From a virus (Duplodnaviria > Caudoviricetes), in IMG/VR virus record IMGVR_UViG_3300016474_000496, positions 1-57,497 of that record: 57,497 nucleotides of DNA; one strand, 5' to 3'. Both the position numbers and the translations under genes were made by a program. The notes beneath the pieces were generated by a model that saw only the letters and a list, made by a program, of their open reading frames with translations, was not told the origin of the DNA and searched no databases. Shown here piece after piece: positions 28,682 through 45,861 of the stretch. The number at the start of each line of letters is the position of its first letter. Position 1 is the first letter of the stretch.

Positions 28682-28711
28682 AAAAGACCCCGCACGCTGG
28701 TTGGGTATGAT

Positions 28712-28740: not shown

Positions 28741-28774
28741 TAAAAATCGTTCAACCCCATAACAGATAACTACG

Positions 28775-30313: not shown

Positions 30314-32465
30314 CAAGAAAGATAAACAACTCTGGGCCGTTGACCGCGCCCCCACCACGCTCGACTACGCGTTGGCCTATGCCCGACTCGGGTGGGCGGT
30401 GCTGCCGGTGTGGTCGGTGGACGCCCATGGGCAGTGCCGGTGCGGTCGCGCCAACAACGAGCAGGGGCACAAAGCCGGCAAGCACCCTCAGTCTCAACTG
30501 GTTCCGCATGGGCATCAAGACGCCACAACCGACGCCGAGCGCATCCGTTCGTGGTGGTCAACCGACCCGGACGCGGGCATCGGCGTGAGCTTGGCCGACT
30601 CGGGATTGCTCGCGCTCGACATCGACCCGCAAAATGGCGGCGCTGAGAGCCTTGCGGCGCTCGAGGCCGAACACGGTGTTCTGCACTCAGACCTTACGGC
30701 GGTTACGCAGGGCGGCGGTGAGCATCGGATTTTCAACGCCGACCCCGAAATGAGTTACCCCGGCTCGCTCGGTAAAGGGCTTGACCTCAAACATAACGGC
30801 TACATCTGCGTAGCCCCAACCCTTGGGCCGTCAGGCGAATACCGCTGGGCCGAAGGGCGATCCCCGCTGAGCCGCACCGCGCCCGCCGAGCCTTCCCCGT
30901 TGCCGGGGTTGATTGCGGCTCGGGCACGCTCGCCCGTTTCATATAATTTGACCGAGCGCGGCGGAGTTCCCGTAGCCACGGCGCAAACATTTGATGACTT
31001 GCGATCCGCGCTCAAACACGTCGACGCCGACGACTACACAACGTGGGTCAACGTGGGCATGGCGCTCAAACCGTATGGCGAGAACGGTTACAAAATCTGG
31101 ACTGAGTGGTCGGCGCAAAGCGAAAAGTTCAACGCCGCCGCGCAGCGCAAAAAGTGGGAGCGCGACCTGACCAACCCGCATAGCATTACGTACCGTTCGA
31201 TTTTCCGTCTAGCGATTGACGCCGGCTGGCCGGGCAACAACGCATCCGCCGTTGCCGGTCCCGGGGAAAAAGCCGCACACCCATTTGCGCTGAGTCGCGC
31301 AGTGTTTACGGGTGCGGATCGGGTAGCAATTTTCGAGTACATCTTCGACGACTTCATGAGCATCGGCGTTAACGTTGTGGCGGGAGCGCCCGGCGTCGGC
31401 AAGACCACGCTCGTGATACCGTTGGCATTGGCGGCTGCGCATCTTTGCCCGACTGATTATTTGATGCGCCCCACGGTGCGCCGCAACGTCATCATAATCA
31501 CTGAGTCGGTCGAGCAGGTTCAACGCACCATTTACTCGCTGTACAGCTGGGGGTTCACCGGTGCAAGCACCGCCGACTTTGAGGCTCGGGTGCGGGTGCT
31601 CGCCGCCCAACGCCTCGACCCCAAAGCAGTCGGGGCCGTGGCCGACGAGTATCGCGCATGGACCGTGAGTAACGCCCGCACCGACGACCCCGACACCTTT
31701 TACGAGGCGTTGCCGCTGGTGGTGTTTGACACGGCCAACGCCGTATTTGACCTTGAGTCTGAAAACGACAACGCCGAAGTTGGTCGCGCAATGGCCGCGA
31801 TTAAGCAAGCGTTTTCCGCGTTTCCAATCATCATCGTCAGCCATACCGCAAAAATCTTAGGCTCGCAAGAAGCCTCAAACCTCGGCCCGCGTGGCGCATC
31901 GGCTTGGACCGGAGATGCGCAGGGGGTTTATGCCGTGTTCAAAGACGGCGAAGACGCCGACGCGCCTCGGGTTCTCAAAGCCGTAAAAGTTCGGTTCCCG
32001 GCAGCTTACCCTGAGTTAGTGTTCGAGCTCGTCAGCAACCGCGAGCGCCACCCGGACGTGCTGGGCACTCCGCGTGACATATGGTTCGCACACGCCGTGG
32101 CTCGACCGCTGAAGGCCGGCGAACGCACCGCGTTAAAAACGCAAGTCAAAGAGGAGCGTGAACGCACCGCGCTGAACGCCCTAACACACCAGCTGATACG
32201 GCTCATTCGCGACAACCCCAACCGCGCTCGCAGCTACTTTGAGCGGCTAGCCACAGCCGAAGGCGGCCTGAAGTGTTCGCAAGAACGGCGTGAGCGGCTG
32301 ATGAACTCCCTGCTTGCAGACGGCCTCGTCGAACGCATTGAGCTCGAGAAACCGCAAGGTCGCGCCAATCACTATGTGCGTGTCAACGAAGAGTTAGTCG
32401 CGCAACATTACCCCACCGAGCCCGGCTCGTTACGTGTTTTTAACCCTGACGATGGAGAACTTTAG
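30306..32465 (+). CDS. bifunctional primase-polymerase with PriCT-2 and RepA-like (AAA_25) helicase domains
   Basis: ALAYARLGWAVLPV, CRC...GKHP, LALDID, TQGGGEH; YTTWVNVGMAL..W.EWS; GAPGVGKT, VVFDT, IVSHTAK, RGASAW. TTG start after GGAGGAG. Confidence 0.88.
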   Translation: MRSKKDKQLWAVDRAPTTLDYALAYARLGWAVLPVWSVDAHGQCRCGRANNEQGHKAGKHPQSQLVPHGHQDATTDAERIRSWWSTDPDAGIGVSLADSGLLALDIDPQNGGAESLAALEAEHGVLHSDLTAVTQGGGEHRIFNADPEMSYPGSLGKGLDLKHNGYICVAPTLGPSGEYRWAEGRSPLSRTAPAEPSPLPGLIAARARSPVSYNLTERGGVPVATAQTFDDLRSALKHVDADDYTTWVNVGMALKPYGENGYKIWTEWSAQSEKFNAAAQRKKWERDLTNPHSITYRSIFRLAIDAGWPGNNASAVAGPGEKAAHPFALSRAVFTGADRVAIFEYIFDDFMSIGVNVVAGAPGVGKTTLVIPLALAAAHLCPTDYLMRPTVRRNVIIITESVEQVQRTIYSLYSWGFTGASTADFEARVRVLAAQRLDPKAVGAVADEYRAWTVSNARTDDPDTFYEALPLVVFDTANAVFDLESENDNAEVGRAMAAIKQAFSAFPIIIVSHTAKILGSQEASNLGPRGASAWTGDAQGVYAVFKDGEDADAPRVLKAVKVRFPAAYPELVFELVSNRERHPDVLGTPRDIWFAHAVARPLKAGERTALKTQVKEERERTALNALTHQLIRLIRDNPNRARSYFERLATAEGGLKCSQERRERLMNSLLADGLVERIELEKPQGRANHYVRVNEELVAQHYPTEPGSLRVFNPDDGEL

Positions 32466-32466
32466 A

Positions 32467-32676
32467 ATGGAAAACCCCACCCCCTTAGAAAAACCAACCG
32501 CCCCGCTATGGCTTGAAGAGTTCAACCGCCAGATCAAACCCGGTAACTGGTGCATACCCGTGGAAGACGTTTGGCGTAAATACGGTTGGGTTCCGCCTTC
32601 GAGAGAGTGCCCCGCCACGATGCGCAAGCACGAAACCTACCGTCGTTGGATACCCGTTGAGCACCCCCAGCCATGA
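32467..32676 (+). CDS. hypothetical protein
   Basis: DVWRKYGWVPPS motif; GGAG upstream. Confidence 0.55.
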   Translation: MENPTPLEKPTAPLWLEEFNRQIKPGNWCIPVEDVWRKYGWVPPSRECPATMRKHETYRRWIPVEHPQP

Positions 32677-33026
32677 GCCACCCCGCACTTCCCCCGCTGA
32701 AGCTCAACCCCCGGCAGCGTGAGCTGCTGAACTACCTGAAGAACCGCAGCACGCCGGCTTCAACCGTCCTGCTAGCGCAACGGTTTAAGGTTACTACGGC
32801 GTGCATCACGGGCAACCTGCGCCCGCTGCTGATGGCCGGCGAAGTTGAGCGAACCTTCAAACTTGAGCAGACCTCCATAGCGGGCAAGGTCTCAAAGCTC
32901 GGCTACTACAAAGCCACTAAGCCTATTCCGTCAAAGAAGCCGCGCCCTAAGACGTCACCCTCAATGTTTAACGACCCGTTCAACCTTGGGAGCGGCAGGG
33001 AGCGAATCGATACCCAACCAGATTGA
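32673..33026 (+). CDS. winged-HTH DNA-binding protein
   Basis: LNPRQRELLNYL...STVLLAQRFKVTTACITGNLRPLLMAGEVER. Confidence 0.6.
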   Translation: MSHPALPPLKLNPRQRELLNYLKNRSTPASTVLLAQRFKVTTACITGNLRPLLMAGEVERTFKLEQTSIAGKVSKLGYYKATKPIPSKKPRPKTSPSMFNDPFNLGSGRERIDTQPD

Positions 33027-33037
33027 AGGGTTATCAC

Positions 33038-33067
33038 TTGTCAAACAATGATGGAATAAGGTTTAAT
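33038..33067 (+). promoter_or_regulatory. sigma70-like promoter
   Basis: TTGTCA-N18-TTTAAT in an AT-rich intergenic gap. Confidence 0.5.
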
Positions 33068-33112
33068 TCAAACCGTTGTACTTCATAACTGCGATAACTT
33101 AGGAGAACTGAA

Positions 33113-33445
33113 ATGCTAAACGACCTCAAACTCACTAGTGTTGATCAGCTCGGCGCGTTGCTCGCTGAGATCAAAACCCTCGAGGCTCGTGCCGAGGAAA
33201 TCAAGACAAAAATCAAAGAGTCCGCCAGTGCCGGTGGCCCACGTGTTGTTGAAGGTGCGCTGTTCAAGGCAATTTACAGCGAGTCGAATCGCGCAACGGT
33301 TGACTACAAATCTATCGTAACGGTGCTCGCTGACCTTATCCAGCAGCAGAACCCTCAGGTCGACATCAAAAGCGTCATCAACAATCTTGTCGCCGAGAAC
33401 ACCAAGGTTTCCGCCGTATTTGCCGTAAAAGTAACTTCAAGGTAA
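33113..33445 (+). CDS. hypothetical protein
   Basis: RBS AGGAG; VDQLGALLAEIKTL coiled coil, VEGALFKA. Confidence 0.7.
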   Translation: MLNDLKLTSVDQLGALLAEIKTLEARAEEIKTKIKESASAGGPRVVEGALFKAIYSESNRATVDYKSIVTVLADLIQQQNPQVDIKSVINNLVAENTKVSAVFAVKVTSR

Positions 33446-33455
33446 GATTCATTCC

Positions 33456-33474
33456 AGGGGGTCAACCGCCCCCT
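33456..33474 (+). promoter_or_regulatory. G5/C5 hairpin upstream of an RBS
   Basis: AGGGGG-TCAACCG-CCCCCT followed by CAA; no U-tract. Confidence 0.45.
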
Positions 33475-33506
33475 CAATCTAACTCAACAACTCAAAGGAA
33501 CTCAAA

Positions 33507-33692
33507 ATGAAAGTACAACTCAATCAACTTGTTAAAGTAATTGAAGTGCTAAGCAAGATCGAAAAAGCAAGCATGAAAACGTTTCAAGACCCGCAGTACG
33601 TCGGAGCGTTGCAAGCTGAAGCTTGGTTAGCGATGTGGCCTCTGAAGCACGCAATCGAAGACGCTCAACTTGAAGTCACCGTCGAGGAGTAA
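33507..33692 (+). CDS. hypothetical protein
   Basis: RBS AAAGGA; 61 aa. Confidence 0.6.
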   Translation: MKVQLNQLVKVIEVLSKIEKASMKTFQDPQYVGALQAEAWLAMWPLKHAIEDAQLEVTVEE

Positions 33693-33697
33693 GTCTG

Positions 33698-33967
33698 ATG
33701 GAACCCTTTCGCCTTACATTCGAGCACGTCATTGGCGGCGTGCCCTGCTTAATCGGTGTGCTGTCCTTCGAGAGCGTGCCCGGCACGTTCAGCCGCAACG
33801 CCGCCAGCGACCTTGACTATTACGGCTGGTTTGACTGCGAGTGGCATGTGCTTGACGAAGACGGTCAACTGTCACCTGAACTGGCCGCCAAAGCCACCTG
33901 GGCCGAAGATCAAGCCATCCGCGAAAAAGTCCAAGACCTTTTGAGCAAGGAGTTCCGCCGTGCTTAA
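33698..33967 (+). CDS. hypothetical acidic protein
   Basis: GVPCLIGV...AASDLDYYGW...EWHVLD; RBS GAGGAG. Confidence 0.6.
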   Translation: MEPFRLTFEHVIGGVPCLIGVLSFESVPGTFSRNAASDLDYYGWFDCEWHVLDEDGQLSPELAAKATWAEDQAIREKVQDLLSKEFRRA

Positions 33968-34151
33968 AATTCTAACTCAACACATTATGCCGCCGGTTCC
34001 AGTGCGTTTCTTTGACTGGACAGCCTTTAGTCCTGATTACGAGCCCGGCGACCCGGTAGGTTACGGCACTACGCAGCAAGAAGCTGTCGAAGAATATCTC
34101 TCAGCCATTGACGCTCCGCTCGATGTTGAGTACGTTGTTGAGAGAGTTTGA
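33960..34151 (+). CDS. hypothetical protein
   Basis: FDWTA...DYEPGDPVGYGTTQQEAV; GTG start after AAGGAG. Confidence 0.6.
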   Translation: MLKILTQHIMPPVPVRFFDWTAFSPDYEPGDPVGYGTTQQEAVEEYLSAIDAPLDVEYVVERV

Positions 34152-34152
34152 A

Positions 34153-34374
34153 ATGCGCCATCATCAGGTTGGAGACCGCGTCATGACACCCTCAGGCGTA
34201 GGAGTGTTGGAGGCCGTTCACGCAGACGGCGGATGCTCGGTACGGCTCATCGGCCAGCAGCCCGCCAACTGGCCGTTCCCGAAGTGGGTGATACTGCCGC
34301 TGTCGCAAGTGAAAGCTGCCCGCACCCCGAAACCACCGCCGAGCATTGAAGAGTTTGAAGAAGCACCGTTTTGA
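34153..34374 (+). CDS. hypothetical protein (KOW/SH3-like start)
   Basis: VGDRVMTPSGVGV; C-terminal EEAPF. Confidence 0.55.
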   Translation: MRHHQVGDRVMTPSGVGVLEAVHADGGCSVRLIGQQPANWPFPKWVILPLSQVKAARTPKPPPSIEEFEEAPF

Positions 34375-34395
34375 ACATACAGGAGATTACTCAAA

Positions 34396-34911
34396 ATGAC
34401 TAACATCGACCCCCATCAAACCGAAACCAGCAAGTCACTTTACGCTTGGCTAGAGACCGCCTCAATTGAGCAGCTCATTGAGTTCCACAACAAGTACGCT
34501 GAGCGCCGTGTTCGGGCGTTCTCTGACCGTCAAATGGCAGTTGACCGCTGTCGCGAGCTGTGGGATAAGCTTCAGGTTTCTTTTGCGGGCAAAGTCATCA
34601 ACACTAAAGAGCGTTCCGCAACCGGCAGCGGTAAGCGCCCCGCCATGAGCGAGTCGCTTCGGCTGCCTGATCGGCGCGTACGCTGCATCGAGACCGGTGA
34701 GGTTTGGGCCAACGCTTTGAAACTTCGCCGTGATCGTCCCGACTGGATGACCAGCGGTCAGCAGGATCGTCTTACGCGCCAGTTGTACAACGCCGCAAAA
34801 GCCGGTCAGCGGGCGGTGGTTGAGATCAACGGACGCTCGTTTGAGCTCGTCAATTCGTTCCTGACCTATGAGCATCAGAAAGCTGCCGCAGCAAAAGGAG
34901 TCTCAAAATGA
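34396..34911 (+). CDS. hypothetical protein, possible DNA-binding C-terminal domain
   Basis: RBS AGGAG; RVRAFSDRQMA; RVRCIETGEVW resembles NUMOD1-type starts. Confidence 0.55.
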   Translation: MTNIDPHQTETSKSLYAWLETASIEQLIEFHNKYAERRVRAFSDRQMAVDRCRELWDKLQVSFAGKVINTKERSATGSGKRPAMSESLRLPDRRVRCIETGEVWANALKLRRDRPDWMTSGQQDRLTRQLYNAAKAGQRAVVEINGRSFELVNSFLTYEHQKAAAAKGVSK

Positions 34912-35063
34912 GAAACCGTAACCGAAGTGTGTTTGATAGCGGGGGGTTCTTCTTCCTTTGGGTACTGAGCTGGGTAGCGCTCATCGCGGCGGGTACGGTC
35001 TTAGCGGGGGTGTTCTGCCGCGTCATGAGCTCGTTATTTAACTTTGGGTGGAACCTTCTATGA
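34908..35063 (+). CDS. small membrane protein (51 aa)
   Basis: Hand-translated MRNRNRSVFDSGGFFFLWVLSWVALIAAGTVLAGVFCRVMSSLFNFGWNLL; RBS AAGGAG; ATGA overlaps at both ends. Confidence 0.6.
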   Translation: MRNRNRSVFDSGGFFFLWVLSWVALIAAGTVLAGVFCRVMSSLFNFGWNLL

Positions 35064-35260
35064 ACGATCACTGGTGGTGGGATCAGGTTCGTAAAAATGG
35101 CGGGTTCGCCCGCGACATGTCGGTGCGCGAAGTTGTTGCGATGTTCTTCATGTTGCAGTATGCTGCTAACGACGAAACGTCGCTGCAGGAAGACGCGTCT
35201 AATGCGTTCTTGGCGGCCGATATCTTCATCAAAGAAGGTGCTCGAAATGCTAACGACTGA
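35060..35260 (+). CDS. hypothetical protein
   Basis: DMSVREVVAMFFM...AFLAADIFIKEG; ATGA overlap. Confidence 0.55.
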   Translation: MNDHWWWDQVRKNGGFARDMSVREVVAMFFMLQYAANDETSLQEDASNAFLAADIFIKEGARNAND

Positions 35261-36254
35261 TTATCGGCTGCGGGAAAACCGCCGCGAATATTTCGATAAG
35301 CTCTACGGCTTGAACTTGACCTACGGCGTGATGCCGGGGCTGGTGTACCTTTATATGCCGGAGCTGGCGCGGCGTTATGACTGGGATGCCGAGCAGCGCC
35401 TTTGGTTCGCGTTCTTGAACGGCTTGACTCAAAACCCTATCACTTCGATGAGTCTCGCGAAGCGCCTTCCGTCGGTGCCGCCGCCCGGCGCAACATTGAG
35501 CGGTTTCTCGGAATGGTTCGGAACTGAGTGGGATCGGCTTCAGTTCGACACCGATCGCCGATATCAAAAAGCGCACACCGTTGAGGCTATCCGTACCTAC
35601 GCCAATCTTGTAGCCGAGCACGGCACGCAAGCCGCCATGCTTAGTGGGAAAACTTACGCCGAGTTGTGGGCGTTGGTTCGGGGGCAGTATCATTCGTTCG
35701 GGCGGTTGTCATCGTTCTCTTACCTCGAGTACGTTTACCTGAATGGGTTTGGCGCTGACTGTGATAACTTGCTTTTCAACGACAAGTCGGGCAGCCGCTC
35801 TCACCGCAACGGTATGTTGTTCTTAACGGGCAACGACCAGTTAGTCTGGGACAAGCGGGCGGGCAACGACTTTGACGGCAGTTATTTCAATTTTGAAGGC
35901 ATGTGTACCTGGTTGAGCCGAGAAGCCGACAACATTCTTTTTGACTTTTCTGAGCAGAACCACGACACCCCCAACGTAAGCAACTTTACACTTGAGAGCA
36001 ATCTGTGCACGTTCAAGAATCACTTCTTCGGGCGGCGTTACCCCGGCGTTTACGCCGACATGGCGTGGGAGCGCATCGAGTGGGCGGACGCTCGGGGCTT
36101 GAGCGAAGTCACGGCGGTGTTCAAAGACATGCGCAGTCTGGACCTGCCTGAGTGGTTGCGCGCCGAGTGTGAGCCGCAACAGTTGTCTTTGAAAGAAAAA
36201 GCGCGTATATTTCCAACTACGGGTCAGCCGTATCGTGCTGAACACTTTTTATAA
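35247..36254 (+). CDS. amino acid:DNA transferase-like protein (aGPT-Pplase2/ADDT family, HhH-glycosylase fold)
   Basis: DYRLRENRREYF, EQRLWFAFLNG, FDTDRRY, FGRLSSFSYLEY, SHRNG, LESNLCTFK, RRYPGVYAD; adjacent to a kinase and a dUMP hydroxymethylase. Confidence 0.75.
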   Translation: MLTTDYRLRENRREYFDKLYGLNLTYGVMPGLVYLYMPELARRYDWDAEQRLWFAFLNGLTQNPITSMSLAKRLPSVPPPGATLSGFSEWFGTEWDRLQFDTDRRYQKAHTVEAIRTYANLVAEHGTQAAMLSGKTYAELWALVRGQYHSFGRLSSFSYLEYVYLNGFGADCDNLLFNDKSGSRSHRNGMLFLTGNDQLVWDKRAGNDFDGSYFNFEGMCTWLSREADNILFDFSEQNHDTPNVSNFTLESNLCTFKNHFFGRRYPGVYADMAWERIEWADARGLSEVTAVFKDMRSLDLPEWLRAECEPQQLSLKEKARIFPTTGQPYRAEHFL

Positions 36255-36276
36255 CGAAACAACTGGAAAAACTCAA

Positions 36277-36843
36277 ATGCGAAACGTCATCTTACGCGTC
36301 TCGGGTACCTTCGGCTCAGGTAAAACCACCGCTGTGCGACAGTTCTTAGCCTACGGCGCTAAAGCGCTGATGAGCGGTGAGAAAATCGCCGGCTACCGCA
36401 CGAGCGCCCCTACGTTACGCACTCCGATCTACGTCATCGGAAAGTACGATAATGTTTGCGGCGGCACTGACGCAATCAAAACTCAAGCCGAGGTGGCTCA
36501 GCGAATCTTGAAAGCGCACCCGTTGGGGCATGTGCTTTACGAAGGGGCGTTGGTTTCCGCTAGCGGGCTGGGCGGTCAAATCACTCAGGCCGTTCACCCC
36601 ACGGGTTGCGCGGTCTATGCGTTCATGAACACGCCGCTCGAGCTGTGTATCGAGCGCGTGAAGCAGCGGCGACTCACGGCCGGAAACGAAAAACCGCTTG
36701 ACCCTAAAAACCTGATTCAAAAGTTCAACGCCGTTGTGAACTGCTACCGCAACCTTCGCGCTGCCGGTTACGACGTACGGCTCATTGACTACGCTGACCC
36801 TCACCCTCAGCTGATGACTATTTTCGAGGAGTTCGAAGCATGA
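36277..36843 (+). CDS. P-loop kinase, putative 5-hmdU DNA kinase
   Basis: SGTFGSGKTT, IGKY...CGGTD, VLYEG, TPLELCIERV..RR; sits in the hypermodification cluster. Confidence 0.7.
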   Translation: MRNVILRVSGTFGSGKTTAVRQFLAYGAKALMSGEKIAGYRTSAPTLRTPIYVIGKYDNVCGGTDAIKTQAEVAQRILKAHPLGHVLYEGALVSASGLGGQITQAVHPTGCAVYAFMNTPLELCIERVKQRRLTAGNEKPLDPKNLIQKFNAVVNCYRNLRAAGYDVRLIDYADPHPQLMTIFEEFEA

Positions 36844-37757
36844 TCGAAGACTGCCCTTACGGGCCGCCCGCCGCTGATAAAATCGCTTCAATTGAGGGGC
36901 TGTTGTATTTTGTTTGGGAACGGGAAGTGATTCGCATATCCCGTGAAAACAAGCTGCCGCCCCCGTGGACCGAGGACCCCATTCTGCGTGAATATAAGTT
37001 TACGAACATTCGCCGCCGCGACGACCGGGTATCTCAGTGGATCATCAAATACCTTATAGAACCTGATGCCGGTCGGCCGGACTTATGGTTTACGCTTTTG
37101 ATAGCGCGGCTGATCAACTGGCCACCTACGCTGCGAGTGTTGGTTTACGAGAAGATGTTGCCCGTGTCGCCTGAGAAGTTTTCACCTGAGGCGTTTAGCG
37201 CTCTCATCGAAGCGTATCGCCGCAAGGTTGACAAGATTTACAGCGGTGCGTACATGGTTTACCCTACGAAAAAAGACCCGGCGGGGATCAAGAGCCTTGC
37301 GCTGGCGCGGCATATCATTGAGCCCGCAATCGAACTCAACGCTCAACTGATCGAAGAGCTGAACTACGAGCGCCCACGAATCGAGAACTTTGTGAATACG
37401 CTGTCAACTTCGTTCGGGCTGAATACGTTCATGGCCGGTCAGGTTGCCGCTGATCTTACTTACACTGATAAACAGCTCGGCGTTGCAGAGGACCTTCACA
37501 CCTACGCCCCGATCGGTCCCGGCAGCACCAAAGGTCTAAATTATCTTACGGGCCGTAAGTCAACGATGCCTTGGAACCAGACCCAGTTCAACAAGAAGCT
37601 GGTTGAAATCAAAGACGCAATCGAGACGCAGCTCGACATTACGGACCTCACACTACATGACGTACAGAACGTGATGTGCGAATACAGCAAGTACGCACGC
37701 ACCGTGGTTGGAGACGGCGTACCTAAAACCCGATACAAGCCCGAGAAGGAGTTCTAG
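36840..37757 (+). CDS. aGPT-Pplase1 (HMUDK helical domain) family protein, second HhH-fold DNA-modification enzyme
   Basis: YFVWERE.IR...PPPWTEDPILREYKFTNIRRRDDRVS, FMAGQVAADL, GPGSTKGL, DVQNVMCEYSKY. Confidence 0.8.
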   Translation: MIEDCPYGPPAADKIASIEGLLYFVWEREVIRISRENKLPPPWTEDPILREYKFTNIRRRDDRVSQWIIKYLIEPDAGRPDLWFTLLIARLINWPPTLRVLVYEKMLPVSPEKFSPEAFSALIEAYRRKVDKIYSGAYMVYPTKKDPAGIKSLALARHIIEPAIELNAQLIEELNYERPRIENFVNTLSTSFGLNTFMAGQVAADLTYTDKQLGVAEDLHTYAPIGPGSTKGLNYLTGRKSTMPWNQTQFNKKLVEIKDAIETQLDITDLTLHDVQNVMCEYSKYARTVVGDGVPKTRYKPEKEF

Positions 37758-37761
37758 AGCC

Positions 37762-38751
37762 ATGGCCTACACAATCACCGCAACGAACGTCAACGAGGCC
37801 TTCGCGGAGGTTTTCTGGAAGCTTCGCACGTACCCTACTCATGAGCGCAACACGCGTAACGGGCCAGCGATTACCTTTACCGACACATTCATCATTACGT
37901 ACCTCAAACCGCAAGAGCGGGTGCTGTTTCATGAAGGGCGCGACGCTAATCCGATTTTTCACCTCATGGAGTCAATCTGGATGCTCGCGGGGCGAAATGA
38001 CGTGGCGTTTCTGGAGCGGTTCAACAGCCGCATTCGGCAGTACAGCGACGACGGCGTAACGTTTAACGCTGCGTACGGCTACCGCTGGCGGCGACATTTC
38101 GGGTTCGATCAGCTGTTGGGCGTGATTGACCTTTTACGCAGTGACCCCCGGACTCGGCAAGCCGTTGTGCAAATCTGGGACCCCGCTGATCTCACAAAGA
38201 CCACTAAAGATAAAGCCTGCAACACGCAGATAATCTTTGAAACCCAGGCCGGGCAGCTTGACATGACCGTTTTGAACCGCAGCAACGATATCTGGTGGGG
38301 TGCGCTCGGTGCTAACGTTGTTCACTTTAGCGTGCTGCAGGAGTTTGTCGCCACGGCGCTTCAGGTTCCGTTAGGGGTTTATCGGCAAGTGAGCGCGAAT
38401 CTTCACCTTTATCGCAATCTCTACAAAGCCGATCAGTATATTACGCTACCGCCCCAAGCGAGTGACTTCGACCGTTACTGGCGCGGCATGGTCACACCGC
38501 GCCCGCTGATGACCGAGCCGGACCCGCAACTGTTCTTGTACGAGTGTGAATGGTTCTGCGTTGACCCGCTAGCCCCCAACCCATATCGCAACACGTTCTT
38601 GAGCGAAGTCGCCCGCCCGATGGCTATGGTCACTGCCGCTCGCAGGGGCGGGGGAACTGGCCGGGCCGAGGCGGCTTCGGTTCGAGCTACCGATTGGCGA
38701 AGCGCTGCGATGGATTGGGTTGAGCGGCGCGAAGCAGCTCGGAAGCGCTAA
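37762..38751 (+). CDS. thymidylate-synthase-family dUMP hydroxymethylase
   Basis: TRNG, RDANPIFHLMESIWMLAGRND, AYGYRWR, catalytic DKACN, NRSNDIWWGALGANVVHF (Asn implies dUMP specificity), NLHLY. Confidence 0.85.
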   Translation: MAYTITATNVNEAFAEVFWKLRTYPTHERNTRNGPAITFTDTFIITYLKPQERVLFHEGRDANPIFHLMESIWMLAGRNDVAFLERFNSRIRQYSDDGVTFNAAYGYRWRRHFGFDQLLGVIDLLRSDPRTRQAVVQIWDPADLTKTTKDKACNTQIIFETQAGQLDMTVLNRSNDIWWGALGANVVHFSVLQEFVATALQVPLGVYRQVSANLHLYRNLYKADQYITLPPQASDFDRYWRGMVTPRPLMTEPDPQLFLYECEWFCVDPLAPNPYRNTFLSEVARPMAMVTAARRGGGTGRAEAASVRATDWRSAAMDWVERREAARKR

Positions 38752-38753
38752 TT

Positions 38754-38781
38754 TTGCGTTTTCGAAAATGCGGCCTATACT
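38754..38781 (+). promoter_or_regulatory. sigma70-like promoter
   Basis: TTGCGT-N16-TATACT upstream of the HD/polymerase genes. Confidence 0.45.
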
Positions 38782-38823
38782 TTTATGTTCTAGCTTTATA
38801 ACTTTTAACTTGAGACTGTTGAA

Positions 38824-39318
38824 ATGAGAAAAACCCTTCAGTTCATCATCAACGGAAGCGAAGTCAAACGCTTTCACACCCTCACGACCCTGCAGATTGA
38901 AACCGTCGGCCATCACTCGCACGGCGTTGCGTGTTTTACTCTACTGTTGAACCCGGACGCTAGCCGCCAGCTGATTTTGGCTGCGCTGTTTCATGATCTC
39001 GCCGAGCAGCATACGGGCGACATCCCCTCGCCGGCGAAACGCGAATACGGCATAGGTGATCAGGTTGATAAACTTGAGCGCCGGCTGATGTTTGATGCAG
39101 GAATTCAATATCCTGAGCTCAACGCCTTCGATCAGCGTACGCTCAAGCTCGCTGACATAGCCCATGGGGCGGTGTTTTGTTTACGGGAAGCGCAGCTCGG
39201 CAATCGACGGATGCTTGAGGTTCATGACCGCTACGTCGCCTATGCGCATGAGTTGATTCTCGTGGGACGTGAGCTTGATCTTTTCAACACCATCAAAGGG
39301 TTACGTTATGAGCGCTAA
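38824..39318 (+). CDS. HD-domain 5'-deoxynucleotidase (YfbR-like)
   Basis: VKRFHT, ETVGHHS, ALFHDLAE..TGDIPSPAK, LKLAD. Confidence 0.85.
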   Translation: MRKTLQFIINGSEVKRFHTLTTLQIETVGHHSHGVACFTLLLNPDASRQLILAALFHDLAEQHTGDIPSPAKREYGIGDQVDKLERRLMFDAGIQYPELNAFDQRTLKLADIAHGAVFCLREAQLGNRRMLEVHDRYVAYAHELILVGRELDLFNTIKGLRYER

Positions 39319-39565
39319 CGAAAAGCAAGTCGCCGGCTCACACTATCGCTCCGGCATTCAGCACTGGGACTACGTCATTGCTAATGATCTTGACTATTTT
39401 CAGGGTCAGATAACGAAGTATGTCACGCGTTGGAAACGTAAGAACGGTCTTACAGACCTGCTCAAGGCTCAGCACTTCCTTGAGAAATACATCGAGATCG
39501 CCCGCCAAGCTGAGCAGTCCGACGGTGCTGAACCTACTTCCGGCTACACCAATCAAGACAGATGA
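39308..39565 (+). CDS. DUF3310 (SaV-like / T7 gp1.7-related) protein
   Basis: QVAGSHY...IQHWDY...GQITKYVTRW..KNG..DLLKAQHFLE. Confidence 0.75.
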   Translation: MSANEKQVAGSHYRSGIQHWDYVIANDLDYFQGQITKYVTRWKRKNGLTDLLKAQHFLEKYIEIARQAEQSDGAEPTSGYTNQDR

Positions 39566-41415
39566 GCACTTGGGTGTTTGATACCGAGACCTACCGCAAC
39601 CGCACGTTGTTCTGCGCCAAGAACGTAGACACCGGCGAGTGGTTTGACCTTTGGCGTCACGAGCCAGAGGCTCCTGCGCGACTCAAAAAACTGCTCACCT
39701 CGGGGGGTACGTTTGTAGGGTTCAACTCGCGGGAGTTCGACAATATCATTGTGGCGGCGTTCTGCAGCACCCGTACAGAGGCTGAAATCAAACGCATCGC
39801 CGACGACATCATCAGCAACCGCCTAGCGCCTTGGGCCGCGATGCGTAAGTTCATGCTGCCGGAAGTTCGGTTTGACTGGATCGACCTGATTGAGGTTGCG
39901 CCGTCGTTTGTGAGTCTGAAGGCTTATGGGGCGCGGATGCATATGCCTCGGCTGCAGGATCTTCCAATTCATCATGCTGAACTCATACGCCCCGAGCAGG
40001 AGGCGACTCTCCTTGAGTATTGCCACAATGACGTCGAGACAACTGCGGAGCTCTTACGGCATTTGGAAAAAGAGGTTTTACTGCGGGTCGAAATGAGCCG
40101 ACGTTACGGCGCTGACATGCGTAGCAAGTCTGATTCACAAATGGCTGAACAGGCTTATATCAGTAGCATGAGGCTTCAGCGCCGCGAAAATGAAGTGCCG
40201 AAAAGCGTGCGGTACACGCCACCTCAGTTTTTGAAGTTTCAAGACGCCACTCTTCAACAGCTTTTGGAACGCGTCGCGGTGCATACGTTTGAGATGAATC
40301 CGAACACTGGACACGTTGTGCTCCCGGAGTTTTTAGGCCGCACGACGATTCCGTTCGGCACTGGCGAGTATCAGCTCGGCGTAGGAGGTATACACAGTGT
40401 TCACGACCGGAAAGTCTGTCACGTTGCGGGAGCTGACGTCATTTGTGATATTGATGCCGCTAGTTTTTACCCCAGTATCATACTTGAGTGCGGTTTTGTA
40501 CCCGCCGGATTGGGTGAGGACTTTGTCAGCGAGTATCGTAAAATCTACGAGCGGCGGTTAGAAGCAAAACGTTCAGGAGATAAGACCACAGGCGAGACGC
40601 TCAAGATTTCGTTGAACGGCACGTTCGGCAAACTCGCTAGCCGATACTCGGTGCTGTATTCGCCAGATTTGATGCTTGCTGTGACACTGACCGGACAGTT
40701 CACCCTGCTGATGTTGATCGAGTGGCTAGAGCACGCTGGCGCAACTACGCTCTCAGCCAACACCGACGGCATCGCTATTCGGTATCCGGCAGCGTTGGAA
40801 ACCACGGTCCAGAAAGTCATTAGCCGCTTCAGCGAGGTTTCTCGGTTTGTGTTTGAGTTTACGCCGTATCGAGTTTTAGCAATGAAGGATGTAAACAACT
40901 ACATTGCGGTCAAACCCGACCGCTCGCTAAAAGTCAAAGGTATTTACGCACCGTTGTCGTTGAAAAAGAACCCCACCGCACAAGTTTGCGCTGACGCGGT
41001 CGGTCAATGGTTGGCACGGGGGACCCCGCTTCTCGAAACAATATACGCCGCGCCGTTCAAAGATTTTATCTCAGCGCGTAATGTAACCGGGGGCGGTGCT
41101 CAGGCCGGCCAGTATTTAGGGCGGGTAGTCCGCTGGTATCAGTCTAACGACCCGGCTCTGGAACCTATACGTTACGTGAAGAATAACAACAAAGTTCCAA
41201 AGACCGACGGGGCGCGAGCCTGCATGACGGTTACGGATTTCGTTACGCACCCCGCCGATACCGACTACACATGGTACCACGCGGAAGCTATCAGAATCGC
41301 GGTCGCCGTGGGTTGTGAAAACTACCTCAGCCCGGAAGAACTCGCGCTCATAGCGCCGCCCCCTAAACAACCTAGGAAACGTAAAAATGACAACACCTCT
41401 GCAGTCGCCCGGTAA
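39562..41415 (+). CDS. family B DNA polymerase with N-terminal 3'-5' exonuclease
   Basis: Exo motifs FDTE, GFNS..FD, YCHND; polymerase motifs DIDAASFYPSII, KISLNGTFGK, SANTDG. Confidence 0.9.
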   Translation: MSTWVFDTETYRNRTLFCAKNVDTGEWFDLWRHEPEAPARLKKLLTSGGTFVGFNSREFDNIIVAAFCSTRTEAEIKRIADDIISNRLAPWAAMRKFMLPEVRFDWIDLIEVAPSFVSLKAYGARMHMPRLQDLPIHHAELIRPEQEATLLEYCHNDVETTAELLRHLEKEVLLRVEMSRRYGADMRSKSDSQMAEQAYISSMRLQRRENEVPKSVRYTPPQFLKFQDATLQQLLERVAVHTFEMNPNTGHVVLPEFLGRTTIPFGTGEYQLGVGGIHSVHDRKVCHVAGADVICDIDAASFYPSIILECGFVPAGLGEDFVSEYRKIYERRLEAKRSGDKTTGETLKISLNGTFGKLASRYSVLYSPDLMLAVTLTGQFTLLMLIEWLEHAGATTLSANTDGIAIRYPAALETTVQKVISRFSEVSRFVFEFTPYRVLAMKDVNNYIAVKPDRSLKVKGIYAPLSLKKNPTAQVCADAVGQWLARGTPLLETIYAAPFKDFISARNVTGGGAQAGQYLGRVVRWYQSNDPALEPIRYVKNNNKVPKTDGARACMTVTDFVTHPADTDYTWYHAEAIRIAVAVGCENYLSPEELALIAPPPKQPRKRKNDNTSAVAR

Positions 41416-41761
41416 TACGCGTACGGTTTTTGTGGTTCAAATCGACAATAGCAAAGACCTTAGTGATGCTCGGCGTTTTGGCCAGCTGAGAGCTGTTTTC
41501 AGCCGTCCTCGTAAGCCTTACAACACCCGCATGATGATCGAAAAAGCGCGGCGCGTGTTGAGCGAATGGAAACACGGTGACTACCTGTTAATGATTGGTG
41601 ACCCTTCGTTGTGCGCCATTTGCGCCGCCATCGCCGCTGAGCAAGATGATGTGCTGAACCTGCTGAGTTGGGACCGTGAGCTCTTCCAGTACATAACGCA
41701 TCAATGGGACTTCGGGCAACAGCCTGACAATTACGACGATTTCGCAACGGCGGATGACTAA
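41387..41761 (+). CDS. hypothetical protein
   Basis: VFVVQ...DLSDARRFGQL...DYLLMIGDP...LLSWDR. Confidence 0.6.
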   Translation: MTTPLQSPGNTRTVFVVQIDNSKDLSDARRFGQLRAVFSRPRKPYNTRMMIEKARRVLSEWKHGDYLLMIGDPSLCAICAAIAAEQDDVLNLLSWDRELFQYITHQWDFGQQPDNYDDFATADD

Positions 41762-41789
41762 CCGCCTCTACTCAGAAAGGAGAAACAAA

Positions 41790-42554
41790 ATGTCAAAAGA
41801 GAAGCAACCCGCCCCCAGCAGCTGGCAGGATACGCTGCGCCGGGGCAAGCAAGCCGTACCGCCCCGGTTCGTGATTTACGGTGGTCACGGCATCGGCAAG
41901 TCAACGCTCGCTAGCCAGTTCCCGGCCCCCATCTTCATTAGCACTGAGGACGGCTTAGACTCGCTCGACGTTACGAGCTTTCCCCGAGCGACTAAGATTA
42001 GCGATGTTGTTGACAGTATCAAGACGCTGATCAAGGAAGATCACCAGTTCAAGACCGTTGTGGTTGATTCGGTTGACTGGCTCATAGAGCCGCTAATTGT
42101 GGGGCATGTTGAGTCAACTCACGAAGCTAAAGACCTCGCCTACGGCAAAGGGCAGATGCTGGTGGCGGAAGAGTTCCGTGAGATCCTGCAAGGGCTCGAT
42201 GTACTCCGGCTCAAACGCGGTATGAACGTTGTGCTAATTGCGCATGCGGCAGTCGTGAAGTTCGAAGATCCCCGCACCGAGCCCTATGATCGGTATCAGC
42301 CTAAGCTGCCTAACCGCTGCAACGCGCTCTTGCAAGAGTGGGCCGATGTGATTGCGTTTGCGGCGTTCAAAGTGATAATCCGCAAATCTGACACCGGGTT
42401 CAATAATCAAAAGACCCGAGGCGTGACCACAGGCGAGCGACTGCTGCACTTTATCGAGAACCCCGCATACGCCGCAAAGAACCGTTACGGTTGCCCTGAG
42501 GAAATCGAGATGAAAATCGAAAACCTCGAAAAGCTCATCCCCATTGCCGCTTAA
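41790..42554 (+). CDS. AAA_24 / Sak4-like ATPase
   Basis: IYGGHGIGKST, TVVVDSVDW, VLIAHA, AKNR; RBS AAAGGAG. Confidence 0.85.
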   Translation: MSKEKQPAPSSWQDTLRRGKQAVPPRFVIYGGHGIGKSTLASQFPAPIFISTEDGLDSLDVTSFPRATKISDVVDSIKTLIKEDHQFKTVVVDSVDWLIEPLIVGHVESTHEAKDLAYGKGQMLVAEEFREILQGLDVLRLKRGMNVVLIAHAAVVKFEDPRTEPYDRYQPKLPNRCNALLQEWADVIAFAAFKVIIRKSDTGFNNQKTRGVTTGERLLHFIENPAYAAKNRYGCPEEIEMKIENLEKLIPIAA

Positions 42555-42572
42555 TTAAAGGAGCCCCTTATC

Positions 42573-43079
42573 ATGGCAAAGTTTGGATTTGATACCGCCG
42601 AAGTTGACGTTTCCGCCCCCGCCGAGTATGATCCCATTCCAGAGGGTGAGTACGTTTTGAAGGCGCTCGACGCTGAAGAGAAGTCAACTAACCGAGGCGA
42701 CGGCAGCTACATCAAGGCGAAGTTTGAAGTCGTCAAGGGCGAATACGCAGGTCGCCTCTTGTGGCAAAACTTCAACATTAACAACCCCAGTGAGAAAGCG
42801 CAGCGCATCGGCCGCCAGCAAATCGTAGCTTGGGCCACGGCATGCGGTAGGCCCGAGGCCGACGACACCGACAAACTGCTCGAAAAACCTTTCCGGGCAG
42901 CGGTCGCAATCGAGCCGGGCAGCAACGGCTACAAAGCCAGCAACAAGATCAAAGCGTTCTTGTTTAGCGATGACGGATCTGCCGCACCGCTAGCCCCAAA
43001 AGCCGCCGCCCCGAAAGCTGCCCCGAAGGCCGCTGCCCCTAGCCGGGCACCGGCAGCTTCGGCCAATCCCTGGGACTGA
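42573..43079 (+). CDS. DUF669-family putative single-stranded DNA-binding protein
   Basis: YDPIPEGEY, GEYAGRLLW, A/P-rich tail ending NPWD; follows the Sak4-like ATPase. Confidence 0.75.
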   Translation: MAKFGFDTAEVDVSAPAEYDPIPEGEYVLKALDAEEKSTNRGDGSYIKAKFEVVKGEYAGRLLWQNFNINNPSEKAQRIGRQQIVAWATACGRPEADDTDKLLEKPFRAAVAIEPGSNGYKASNKIKAFLFSDDGSAAPLAPKAAAPKAAPKAAAPSRAPAASANPWD

Positions 43080-43084
43080 GCGTC

Positions 43085-43921
43085 ATGGTAGCCATCCCGC
43101 CCAAACCTGAGCAGCAGGTCATCAACCGCATTTACAATGCGATTGAGAAAGAAAAGGCAGACACCGAACTGTACTTAGGGCGGCTTGGCTCTTCGGGGAT
43201 AGGCGAAGAATGTGCCCGTCAGGTGTGGCTCAACTGGCGAGGTTTCGCCCGTGAGCAGTTTGACGGACGCATGCTTCGCCTTTTCGACACCGGCCATCAA
43301 CAAGAGGCGCGAATCGTAGCTGATTTGCGTCGTGCGGGATTCGCGGTCTGGGATAAGCAACCCGACGGACGTCAGTATGAGTTTGTCGACTCTACCGGGC
43401 ACTTTATAACAAAGGTTGATGGTGTCGTGAAAGACGTCCCTGAGAGCGATAAGCCTCATTTGCTTGAAGTCAAAACACACAACAAGAACAGCTTTAGTTC
43501 ACTCGTAAAGAAAGGTGTAGCCGACGCAAAGCCCTCACACTATGCGCAGGTTCAGATCAGCATGGCGCTGGGCGGGTTTACGCGGGCGCTTTACGTCGCG
43601 GTATGTAAAGACGATGAGCAGTTTTACGTCGAGCGTATACGGGAAGACAAAGCCAAGCAGAACCGACTGCGAGCGCGAATCGTCAAACTCACAGAAGCCC
43701 GGCTACGCCCTGCCGGGATCAGCGATGACGGGTCGAGTTTCGGCTGCAAGTTCTGTAGCATGAAAGCGGCGTGCACTCGCGAAGTTGAACCCCTGCGCCA
43801 CTGCCGCACCTGCTCAATGTGCACCCCAGGGCCGGAAGGCAAGTGGGTGTGCGAACTCAACAACCACACCCTAACCCTCGACGAGCAGCGGGCCGGGTGC
43901 GAACACTACGAGGCATTATGA
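43085..43921 (+). CDS. Cas4-like PD-(D/E)XK exonuclease with Cys cluster
   Basis: LGSS.IGEEC.R..W, VDG...LLEVKT, HYAQVQ, CKFC....C, CRTC. Confidence 0.8.
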   Translation: MVAIPPKPEQQVINRIYNAIEKEKADTELYLGRLGSSGIGEECARQVWLNWRGFAREQFDGRMLRLFDTGHQQEARIVADLRRAGFAVWDKQPDGRQYEFVDSTGHFITKVDGVVKDVPESDKPHLLEVKTHNKNSFSSLVKKGVADAKPSHYAQVQISMALGGFTRALYVAVCKDDEQFYVERIREDKAKQNRLRARIVKLTEARLRPAGISDDGSSFGCKFCSMKAACTREVEPLRHCRTCSMCTPGPEGKWVCELNNHTLTLDEQRAGCEHYEAL

Positions 43922-44394
43922 TCACAATCGGCATTGACCCCGGCTTGAATGGGGCGGTGGGAATACTCAGAGACGGACGATTCGTCGCCGTAGAGGACAT
44001 GCCCATCGTCGCTAAGGGTTCGGGTAGCGTTAAAAACGAAGTTGACGCGGTGGGGCTTCTCAAGCTTCTGAGGCACTATGCCCCAGCGGACGAAGACGCG
44101 GAAGTTGCGCTTGAGCGTGTCAACGCTATGCCCGGCCAAGGCGTGAGCTCGGTTTTCAGCCTAGGGGATTCGTTTGGGGTTGCGCGAGCGGCGGTTTCGG
44201 CTACGCGACGCCACATTGTATACGTAACCCCTGCGAGTTGGAAAAAGTACTTCAGGTTGAGCTCTGATAAAGAGATGTGCCGGGCGTTTGCGATCAGAAC
44301 TTATCCCGAGGCACCGCTCAACCTAAAGAAATACGCCGACCGGGCCGAGGCGCTTTTAATGGCGCGATGGCTTTATAACTGTAAGCACAGGTAG
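43918..44394 (+). CDS. RuvC-like Holliday junction resolvase
   Basis: IGIDPG..GA, ALERV, QGVSSVFSLG, VTPASWKK, DRAEALL. Confidence 0.85.
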   Translation: MITIGIDPGLNGAVGILRDGRFVAVEDMPIVAKGSGSVKNEVDAVGLLKLLRHYAPADEDAEVALERVNAMPGQGVSSVFSLGDSFGVARAAVSATRRHIVYVTPASWKKYFRLSSDKEMCRAFAIRTYPEAPLNLKKYADRAEALLMARWLYNCKHR

Positions 44395-44431
44395 AAAAAG
44401 AAAAACCCCCGAACCTAAACAGTTCGGGGGT
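44395..44431 (-). terminator. intrinsic terminator at the convergence of the two arms
   Basis: Minus strand ACCCCCGAAC-TGTTTAG-GTTCGGGGGT followed by TTTTCTTTTT. Confidence 0.8.
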
Positions 44432-44478
44432 CAAGTCACCCCGCATGGACAGAGGGGCGACAAGGAGTCCCCACACAC

Positions 44479-45849: not shown

Positions 45850-45861
45850 CGGTGAGGCTCC

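Follow-up and report, generated by a model that had tools for sequence, protein, structure and literature searches.

The window analysed here, the whole 57,497-base virus record IMGVR_UViG_3300016474_000496, carries at positions 35247–38751 a thymidine-hypermodification cluster that appears to have lost the enzyme with which its nearest relatives would finish the modified base. With a probability of about one half, we read this cluster as a working pathway of mosaic origin from which a decarboxylase of the type found in Salmonella phage ViI has been deleted, and we predict that the virion DNA carries an intact adduct. The novelty, as judged from sequence comparison, lies in a loss of the decarboxylase that is documented, recent and maintained by selection, within an abundant group of uncultured phages. 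The record was rated 100% complete by CheckV, in agreement with a preliminary description of this DNA that had called it an apparently complete genome, and its first 10 bases are the same as its last 10. The established pathway leads from 5-hydroxymethyl-2'-deoxyuridine (5-hmdU) to 5-phosphomethyl-2'-deoxyuridine (5-PmdU) and then to an adduct (PMC8989533). Pyrophosphorylation, which the preliminary description gave as the middle step, is outdated: the kinase adds one phosphate, and only the monophosphate 5-PmdU was detected (Lee et al. 2021, PMC8989533). The features on which the argument rests are as follows.

35064–35246, no strand: 183-bp spacer, the site where 52 of 79 related loci hold a gene for a pyridoxal phosphate (PLP) enzyme of about 320 aa.
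35247–36254, plus strand: ADDT, the clade-2 aGPT-Pplase, 335 aa (Pfam PF18724, phrog_3271).
36277–36843, plus strand: putative P-loop kinase for 5-hmdU DNA, 188 aa (Pfam PF18748, BLASTP).
36840–37757, plus strand: HMUDK_hel, the clade-1 aGPT-Pplase, 305 aa (Pfam PF18723, E 8.9e-43).
37762–38751, plus strand: thymidylate-synthase (TS) homologue (Pfam PF00303, E 2.1e-21; phrog_5131, E 7e-104).

All four genes were recovered on the plus strand by Pfam, PHROG and BLASTP matches, and the profile check proposed in the preliminary description placed PF18724 and PF18748 above their cut-offs and matched PF18723 as well. The open reading frame (ORF) of the ADDT spans 35097–36254; its likely start is the ATG at 35247 (M51 of the ORF), where the PHROG match and all relatives begin. 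It matched PF18724 at E 9e-16 (58.7 bits, the cut-off being 26.2; in a six-frame search of the record E was 1.7e-17) and phrog_3271 at E 1.5e-60. For the kinase (ORF 36235–36843), a likely start at 36277 gives 188 aa, matching the relatives; the pass of the Pfam family HMUDK_HMUD1 (PF18748) was marginal (E 1.8e-6, 28 bits against a cut-off of 27), BLASTP matched gp49 of phage PaMx11 (33% identity, E 1.5e-20) and gp54 of phage M6 (27%, E 9e-12), and the P-loop GSGKT (residues 13–17) is invariant in an alignment of 50 sequences. The ATG of HMUDK_hel overlaps the kinase stop (ATGA), and the gene adjoins the kinase as in M6 (gp54/gp55) and PaMx11 (gp49/gp50), to whose homologues it is 28–31% identical by BLASTP. 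The TS homologue (ORF opening at 37708, 37708–38751; likely start 37762) is 45–46% identical to PaMx11 gp51 and M6 gp58 by BLASTP, and its Cys153, which we take to be the TS nucleophile, lies within KACNTQ. We infer that it is a dUMP hydroxymethylase from the homology to M6 and PaMx11 and from the co-occurring kinase, which needs 5-hmdU.

No PLP, radical S-adenosylmethionine (SAM), flavin or acetyltransferase family was found among the window ORFs scanned with Pfam at E<=0.01 (69 of a greedy set of 71, the remaining two, 5752–8988 and 48553–53517, being run on PHROGs) or among the 64 ORFs covered by the PHROGs scan. The whole record was also searched in six frames with PF00291, PF04055, PF01266 and PF00583, without a match to any of the four at E<=1; the same searches matched in 14 of 14 control genomes. 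Similarly, the best hit of tblastn with four PLP proteins of relatives against the window had an E-value of 0.17. As far as profile searches reach, the earlier statement that the genome has no PLP, radical-SAM, flavin or acetyltransferase gene thus holds. Neither a PLP decarboxylase of the ViI gp226 type, nor the M6 pair of radical-SAM isomerase and PLP decarboxylase, nor the PaMx11 pair of flavin-dependent lyase and acetyltransferase was found in the window.

An ADDT-based scan of viral contigs returned 79 loci at 58–96% identity, most of them from contigs of 50–60 kb with the common order ADDT, kinase, HMUDK_hel, TS, HD-domain gene, DUF3310 gene and polymerase. In 52 of them a gene of about 318–322 aa lies directly upstream of the ADDT. 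Twenty aligned members of this gene had a mean column identity of 74% and an invariant motif, GPNGSKMRQL, over which their profile matched D-cysteine desulfhydrase 4d8t (E 0.002) and 1-aminocyclopropane-1-carboxylate deaminase; the Lys falls on the GGNKLRKL segment of 4d8t, whose Lys presumably binds PLP. One member matched Pfam PALP (E 2e-4), and two matched phrog_3650 (E 3e-78 and 7e-74), besides a weak threonine-dehydratase PHROG. A tblastn search with the relatives' enzyme returned 349 phage records, most of them from Ackermannviridae and bearing the annotation threonine ammonia lyase or PLP-dependent lyase, and BLASTP gave 33% identity to ViI gp226 over 377 columns (E 3e-63) and no match to M6 gp52. 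By homology, the gene is assigned to PLP enzymes of the ViI gp226 type. As described in PMC8989533, gp226 decarboxylates O-serinyl-thymidine in DNA and requires a free primary amine. In ViI lysates without gp226 the serine adduct is reported at a nominal mass of 345 u. A radical-SAM match was found in none of five PLP-bearing relatives that were 98–100% complete. In two loci (L021 and L022) the PLP gene lies about 8 kb from the ADDT, and L012, L018, L029, L042, L076 and L079 are also without a PLP gene adjoining it.

An extra gene of about 250 aa (alignment A7) is present in 12 more distant relatives (L058:7238–8008, L061:2315–3061, L067:3726–4493, L076:7244–8017, L078:3461–4219 and 7 more), in most of them between the PLP gene and the ADDT. 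It matched no family of Pfam or PHROGs and nothing significant among PDB sequences; its motifs EPFGGxGVFS and D-F-P-F resemble by eye what we take to be those of SAM-dependent amino-methyltransferases. It possibly encodes a further tailoring step, for example an N-methylation acting on the decarboxylated base.

The maximum-likelihood ADDT tree, with 81 rows, places the window in a clade of nine (the window, L004, L005, L059, L006–L009 and L013; support 100/89). The PLP gene is absent from eight of these nine rows, all of which have 2.5 kb or more of context upstream; the context of L007 is too short. The sister clade (L010, L011 and L025) and the next clade out (L016 and L017) carry it, L010 at 7030–7998, and since these sister lineages pair a gp226-type PLP gene with the ADDT, its absence from the window is meaningful. 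Whole-record profile searches found no PLP match in G001, another 100%-complete genome from this clade, or in G002, which is 81% complete. In a third record, G004 (101.8 kb), the PLP gene is present only in the half with an L025-type ADDT. G004 (L091–L096; also L009 and L025) was itself rated 100% complete and consists of two related genomes of about 57 kb joined together, one half PLP-less and the other PLP-bearing, with the head module present once; it is probably an assembly chimera.

Two small genes upstream of the ADDT help to locate the missing segment.

34396–34911, plus strand: u171, a conserved 171-aa protein of no family, with a homologue at the same position in most related loci.
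34908–35063, plus strand: u51, a hydrophobic ORF of 51 aa directly before the spacer and the ADDT.

DNA homology between the window and L010 ends at 34374 and resumes at 35259. In relatives, u171 lies upstream of the small ORF and the PLP gene that precede the ADDT, and in the PLP-bearing half of G004 a u51-like ORF (90857–90714, 44% identity) abuts the PLP gene (89764–90714). Because u51, the small ORF before the PLP gene, is kept in the window, the PLP gene alone is missing. Taken together, the tree and the gene orders suggest a single loss of the gp226-type gene in the window's clade. A PLP pseudogene remnant in the window was looked for and rejected on the tblastn result given above and on the spacer, whose local alignments to three PLP genes scored 17–22, within shuffles (mean about 19, maximum 26–28).

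One explanation that would remove the need for an intact adduct is that a host enzyme, or a phage protein that has escaped recognition, still finishes the base, in which case the virion base would be the decarboxylated, 5-(2-aminoethoxy)methyl-2'-deoxyuridine (5-NeOmdU)-like base of the relatives. About 40 window ORFs belong to no family, and small pyruvoyl-dependent decarboxylases would escape searches aimed at PLP, radical-SAM, flavin adenine dinucleotide (FAD) and GNAT proteins. Against this stands the comparison of all 71 window ORFs with G004, made for a compensating gene, which found none specific to PLP absence: the genes present only in the window were tail fibres and a few small ORFs, and a 286-aa ORF (24922–25782) also occurs in PLP-bearing relatives. 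The family-less u171, under constraint in the PLP-less clade (ratio of nonsynonymous to synonymous substitution rates, dN/dS, 0.03–0.13), might be a cryptic tailoring enzyme; it gave no Pfam or PHROG family, no Atlas lead and no match to the M6 or PaMx11 neighbours. For host finishing, we know of no host enzyme that acts in this way on bases within DNA. A hidden finishing enzyme is, in our view, quite unlikely.

The genes that remain are under purifying selection. Between the window and clade members, pairwise dN/dS (obtained at dS 0.3–1.7) was 0.04–0.07 for ADDT, 0.01–0.10 for the kinase, 0.03–0.04 for HMUDK_hel and 0.05–0.07 for TS, in the same range as the polymerase. HMUDK_hel is full-length in L004 (98% identity) and L013 (93%). 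Decay of the pathway after the decarboxylase loss, leaving DNA with only T or 5-hmdU, might be proposed from the fact that one pathway gene is gone. It appears very improbable: each clade member examined has intact copies of the four genes, dN/dS is low at substantial divergence, and the members of the clade come from eight further viral records, all of which argues that the PLP-less state is stable and selected.

The transferase of this pathway would be the ADDT. By BLASTP it is 39% identical to MONT_42 of Glutamicibacter phage Montesquieu and 34% to gp3 of Mycobacterium phage Prince. It is 26% identical (E 6e-26) to ViI gp247, a serine:DNA transferase with which it has a C-terminal extension in common, and it had no BLASTP match to M6 gp51 or PaMx11 gp46. 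On these comparisons it is of the 'long' type of ViI gp247 and the actinophages. Its E-S-x-x-C motif (Glu250, Ser251 and Cys254) aligns on the motif of M6, PaMx11 and ViI. Glu250 and Cys254 are invariant in 66 sequences and correspond to Glu243 and Cys247 of PaMx11 gp46, whose motif residues are Glu243, Thr244 and Cys247 (PMC11472151), and the Glu/Cys motif is described as essential in M6 gp51 and ViI gp247 (PMC8989533). The preliminary description had allowed for a loss of catalytic residues in either transferase; in the ADDT both Glu250 and Cys254 are kept. The AlphaFold model (pLDDT 93.4) had PaMx11 gp46 (8z2m, 8z2n) as its sole clear match among solved structures, with the top three Foldseek rows, all 8z2m/8z2n, at probability 1.00, E 0.012–0.018 and TM 0.48–0.60, well apart from the next.

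The relatives also indicate what the ADDT would attach. In M6, glycine is attached via its nitrogen, so a radical-SAM isomerase precedes the PLP step; in ViI, serine is attached via oxygen, hence there is no radical-SAM step (PMC8989533). Because PLP decarboxylation needs a free alpha-amine and the relatives are without a radical-SAM enzyme, the ancestral ADDT most likely joined an alpha-amino acid to the base by the side chain, for which serine in ViI is the sole characterised precedent. Hence the likeliest product in the window's clade would be an undecarboxylated, carboxylate-bearing adduct, O-serinyl-thymidine or a close analogue. The preliminary description had drawn a carboxylate-bearing adduct from the missing tailoring genes. 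The adduct itself stands as the most economical prediction, the sisters' decarboxylase being lost and the rest being under purifying selection; the derivation does not, because the transferase of phage PhiW-14 installs putrescine directly, and missing tailoring enzymes do not alone imply a carboxylate.

The same precedent gives rise to an alternative in which the nucleophile taken by the clade's ADDT had no carboxylate to begin with, being ethanolamine, putrescine or some other amine or alcohol; the base would then be cationic or neutral and the decarboxylase dispensable, which would explain why loss of the PLP gene was tolerated. The PhiW-14 enzyme, gp109, is a clade-2 protein that is sufficient in trans, and M6 gp51 accepts foreign nucleophiles, namely beta-mercaptoethanol and borohydride (PMC8989533). 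The remodelling expected from such a change was not observed in the window's clade. Only 3 of 335 ADDT positions (N196, H239 and R320) have a residue that is fixed throughout the PLP-less clade and rare in the 52 PLP-bearing rows, none of them in an invariant column, and the tree branch leading to that clade has a length of 0.038, that of its sister being 0.062. With a short branch and only three non-conserved clade-specific positions, nothing points to a switch of substrate class, and we consider a non-carboxylate nucleophile rather unlikely.

Several points nevertheless weigh against a functional pathway that ends in an intact serine-like adduct. The chemistry is inferred from the sequence of an uncultured phage; hydroxymethylation by the TS homologue, as opposed to methylation, is a reading from context; and the kinase exceeds its Pfam cut-off by 1 bit only. 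Substrate choice is unreadable from a homologue of 26% identity, and the nucleophile may lack a carboxylate, given that PhiW-14 gp109 transfers putrescine and so shows this family to extend beyond amino acids. The argument for serine rests on the ancestor, and specificity may have shifted since. A small novel decarboxylase among the family-less ORFs, for example of the pyruvoyl type, or a host enzyme may also act on the base.

The second transferase-like protein, HMUDK_hel, requires separate consideration. Its residues C280, E281 and K284 are invariant in 64 sequences, and its model has a pLDDT of 91.9. A wide search with VIA-align placed it with helix-hairpin-helix (HhH) glycosylases, QNG1 (queuine salvage) and 8z2m at Z 8.8–10.2 over 176–233 residues, where by the tool's own warning a Z of 8–10 is middling for a helical protein. 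Its profile had no match among PDB sequences at E<=1, and Foldseek gave no row at E<=0.001. Aligned to the ADDT profile with hhalign (E 2.4e-4, probability 43%, 190 columns), Cys280 fell on Cys254; the residue aligned with the essential Glu of the ADDT is an invariant Gln276 in the window's group and a Glu in M6 gp55 and PaMx11 gp50. These comparisons point to HMUDK_hel as a remote paralogue of the ADDT with a predicted HhH glycosylase-like fold. To speak of two transferase-fold enzymes, as the preliminary description did, is therefore fair at the level of fold, given the VIA placement and the alignment of Cys on Cys. At the positions of the ADDT catalytic Cys and Glu it has Cys280 and Gln276.

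It was further suggested in that description that the two enzymes might make two different adducts, HMUDK_hel being a second transferase for a different group. In favour of this may be counted the fold, the remote relationship to the ADDT and the invariant cysteine. Besides, phage SP10 makes glutamyl-thymidine, and the only aG/PT-PPlase listed for it in Table 3 of Lee 2018 is the clade-1 domain on its kinase (PMC5889632). A HMUDK_hel homologue also occurs in Microbacterium phage Nucci (gene 56, L089) and in 41 other Microbacterium records (phages of about 40 kb), and Microbacterium is absent from the organisms found by tblastn with the ADDT, among the matches listed. In Nucci no kinase is annotated near the homologue, and thymidylate-synthase and glycosyltransferase genes lie a few kb away. 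Since the Microbacterium phages have a HMUDK_hel homologue and no ADDT match, a clade-1 protein can presumably work without a clade-2 transferase. On the other side, the clade-1 protein of M6, gp55, was unnecessary for glycine transfer in lysates (PMC8989533), and M6 and ViI encode both clades with a single hypermodified base named beside thymine in the accounts cited here. In addition, the window's clade has Gln276 where M6 gp55 and PaMx11 gp50 have Glu. With one clade-2 transferase in the window, the suggestion of two adducts is poorly supported; HMUDK_hel is probably not a second amino-acid transferase, and we regard a second adduct as improbable.

The distribution of HMUDK_hel suggests another role. 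In a small sample it is found along with the TS-homologue route (the window's group, M6, PaMx11, Stenotrophomonas phage Bhz59, Montesquieu and Nucci), and in Montesquieu it adjoins the TS homologue. Both HMUDK_hel and TS are absent from the complete genome of Prince, which uses the dioxygenase route, and HMUDK_hel was not found in three dioxygenase-type fragments, which are only 4–52% complete. Lee 2018 (PMC5889632), where the SP10 kinase is listed with a fused clade-1 domain, describes how 5-hmdU is converted to thymidine as 'still unknown'. Because HMUDK_hel occurs with the TS route and is absent from Prince, it might dispose of 5-hmdU or 5-PmdU that escapes hypermodification, for example by returning it to thymine; with few related genomes we put this forward tentatively, at odds clearly below even, and the alternative is that it assists the kinase. 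A physical association of the two is implied by the Pfam name and by the SP10 fusion. The most specific form of our reading, in which the clade is a natural decarboxylase knock-out with O-serinyl-thymidine-like DNA and HMUDK_hel returns leftover 5-hmdU to thymine, is accordingly a doubtful one when taken as a whole.

Downstream of the cluster, three genes continue the backbone seen in M6 and PaMx11.

38824–39318, plus strand: HD-domain protein, a YfbR-like 5'-deoxynucleotidase (Pfam PF12917, PF13023, PF01966).
39308–39565, plus strand: DUF3310 protein (Pfam PF11753; ORF opens at 39269).
39562–41415, plus strand: DNA polymerase (phrog_1252, E 5.8e-159).

The HD protein, 34–35% identical to PaMx11 gp52 and M6 gp59 by BLASTP, probably edits the nucleotide pool. 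The DUF3310 protein is 41–53% identical to the syntenic M6 gp61 and PaMx11 gp53 (the BLASTP match starts at ORF residue 14), and the polymerase occupies the same position as those of M6 (gp62) and PaMx11 (gp55) and would have to incorporate 5-hmdUTP. The gene order in M6 is gp51 ADDT, gp52 PLP, gp53 radical SAM, gp54 kinase, gp55 HMUDK_hel, gp56 Nmad5, gp58 TS, gp59 HD, gp61 DUF3310 and gp62 polymerase; in PaMx11 it is gp46 ADDT, gp47 FAD, gp48 acetyltransferase, gp49 kinase, gp50 HMUDK_hel, gp51 TS, gp52 HD, gp53 DUF3310 and gp55 polymerase. Gene identities and this synteny bear out the assignment as a thymidine-hypermodification cluster.

Comparison with known systems shows how the pieces are combined. 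With M6, which makes 5-(2-aminoethyl)-2'-deoxyuridine (5-NedU), and PaMx11, which makes 5-acetylaminomethyl-2'-deoxyuridine (5-AcNmdU), the window shares the backbone of ADDT, kinase, HMUDK_hel, TS, HD and polymerase. However, it has no insert between ADDT and kinase, where M6 has the PLP and radical-SAM genes and PaMx11 the FAD and acetyltransferase genes; its ADDT, which had no BLASTP match to theirs, is not of the short glycine-transferase type; and it has no counterpart of the M6 Nmad5 gene, gp56. The likeness to ViI (5-NeOmdU; kinases gp67/gp243, gp247, gp226) lies in the gp247-type ADDT, in the gp226 homologue of the sisters and in the lack of a radical-SAM step in the PLP-bearing relatives. 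In contrast to ViI, the window has no gp226 homologue, and its pathway should end at the ViI intermediate; its kinase, HMUDK_hel, TS, HD and DUF3310 proteins resemble those of M6 and PaMx11; and its genes are clustered, whereas those of ViI are dispersed. Because the ADDT is of the ViI/actinophage type and the TS, kinase, HMUDK_hel, HD and DUF3310 proteins are nearest those of M6 and PaMx11, the module is a mosaic.

Exchange within the cassette is also suggested among the relatives, whose kinases form two groups of at least 57% and about 39–45% identity to the window kinase (the loci noted for this are L035–L039, L043, L047, L049, L052–L057, L060, L081 and L082). Kinase identity splits while the flanking ADDT and HMUDK_hel stay at 54–70%, which suggests that the kinase gene has been swapped. 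The only longer homologue of the window kinase found, P0241 (512 aa), has a PF18748 kinase domain fused to a PF18724 ADDT domain. That search returned no kinase-HMUDK_hel fusion, a blank that by the tool's own account is weak evidence.

Other phages, too, seem to stop at the transfer step. In SP10 (N-alpha-glutamyl-thymidine) and PhiW-14 (putrescinyl-thymidine) a group is added to 5-hmdU in DNA after phosphorylation, and the cited accounts describe no later tailoring. The SP10 base is an intact amino-acid thymine that keeps its carboxylates in nature (PMC8989533; PMC5889632), and the earlier expectation of an undescribed modified base was to this extent overstated. SP10 and PhiW-14 are phages of unrelated types, and their linkage is via the alpha-nitrogen; for SP10, with its fused kinase, those accounts report no clade-2 gene. 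The one-step state of the window differs from theirs in being secondary, by decarboxylase loss. Closer in ADDT are the actinophage clusters of Mycobacterium phage Prince and its relatives and of Rhodococcus phage Tonitrus, which combine ParB, a Tet/JBP thymine dioxygenase, ADDT and a P-loop kinase. The mycobacteriophage ADDTs are 34–35% identical to that of the window, and among cultured phages only that of Montesquieu is closer. As presented in PMC11955845, these clusters have only kinase and transferase and no annotated tailoring gene, so that a tailoring-free kinase-plus-transferase cluster is not unprecedented. Mycobacterium is not among the organisms found by tblastn with the relatives' PLP enzyme, among the matches listed. 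The actinophages differ from the window in that 5-hmU is made after replication by the dioxygenase and not by a TS homologue, in that the kinase is of another family (Ploopntkinase3), and in that the complete Prince record has neither HMUDK_hel nor TS. A full-text literature search found no chemistry for the actinophage kinase-plus-ADDT clusters. Among the relatives of the window, L076, L078 and L079 have ADDT variants of 60–62% identity beside a Tet/JBP dioxygenase, and searches of these incomplete records yielded neither a TS homologue nor HMUDK_hel. In L076 a Ploopntkinase3-type kinase replaces the window-type kinase, and L078, which adjoins terminase genes, contains one more ORF with a weak likeness to the ADDT (E 6.7e-5).

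The pathway that we propose would run as follows. The TS homologue would make 5-hmdUMP, with the HD hydrolase and the DUF3310 protein biasing the nucleotide pool, and the phage polymerase would incorporate 5-hmdU in place of T, as homology and synteny with M6 and PaMx11 suggest. The P-loop kinase, by homology to enzymes of demonstrated activity, would add one phosphate to the hydroxymethyl group in DNA to give 5-PmdU. The ADDT would then flip the base out, Cys254 would attack C6 with the help of Glu250, the phosphate would be expelled and a free nucleophile would join the exocyclic methylene, a mechanism reported for the M6, ViI and PaMx11 homologues (PMC8989533; PMC11472151). The pathway would end at this adduct, leaving part of the T positions with a zwitterionic, carboxylate-bearing base, O-serinyl-thymidine or a close analogue.

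The cluster lies in a rightward block of replication and nucleotide-metabolism genes (about 24–44.4 kb), and the structural and lysis genes run leftward elsewhere in the window. Megablast of window positions 28000–48000 gave no match to cultured phages, and with blastn the cluster gave matches, at about 70%, in parts of the TS gene alone; by these searches there is no cultured close relative of this phage. Scans of the window for tRNAs and Rfam families had no match, and a promoter and terminator scan of 33–40 kb gave no signal above shuffles. Elsewhere, about 1.2 kb between early genes (27000–28250) contains only implausible, family-less ORFs and no tRNA or Rfam match; it has a 42-nt direct repeat (27430–27471 and 27777–27818, 83% identical) and could serve as an origin or in regulation. 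On the minus strand, the head-morphogenesis module includes a gene for a Cpn10/GroES-like protein (15723–16163; PF00166, E 2.9e-7). Two large minus-strand proteins lie among the structural genes: one of 981 aa (19057–22002) with no PHROG or Pfam family, and one of 1654 aa (48553–53517) with no PHROG family in the PHROGs scan, the only one run on it.

Thymidine hypermodifications shield phage DNA from restriction and are mined as enzyme tools. Among the papers that a full-text search listed, O-serinylthymidine occurs only in PMC8989533 and PMC11472151, where it is described as an intermediate. If the most specific form of our reading is true, a zwitterionic, side-chain-linked thymine so far known only as an intermediate would be the finished base, and HMUDK_hel would fill the step called 'still unknown' by Lee et al. 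2018; the phyletic pattern of HMUDK_hel is in any case a lead on how unmodified 5-hmdU reverts to thymine. The window's clade and its sister represent a natural experiment, in which the same transferase occurs with and without the decarboxylase and the ADDTs are still about 84% identical. Their comparison bears on which amino acid is used, on whether an intact adduct can serve as the finished product, and on how far such phages tolerate a change from a cationic to a zwitterionic base.

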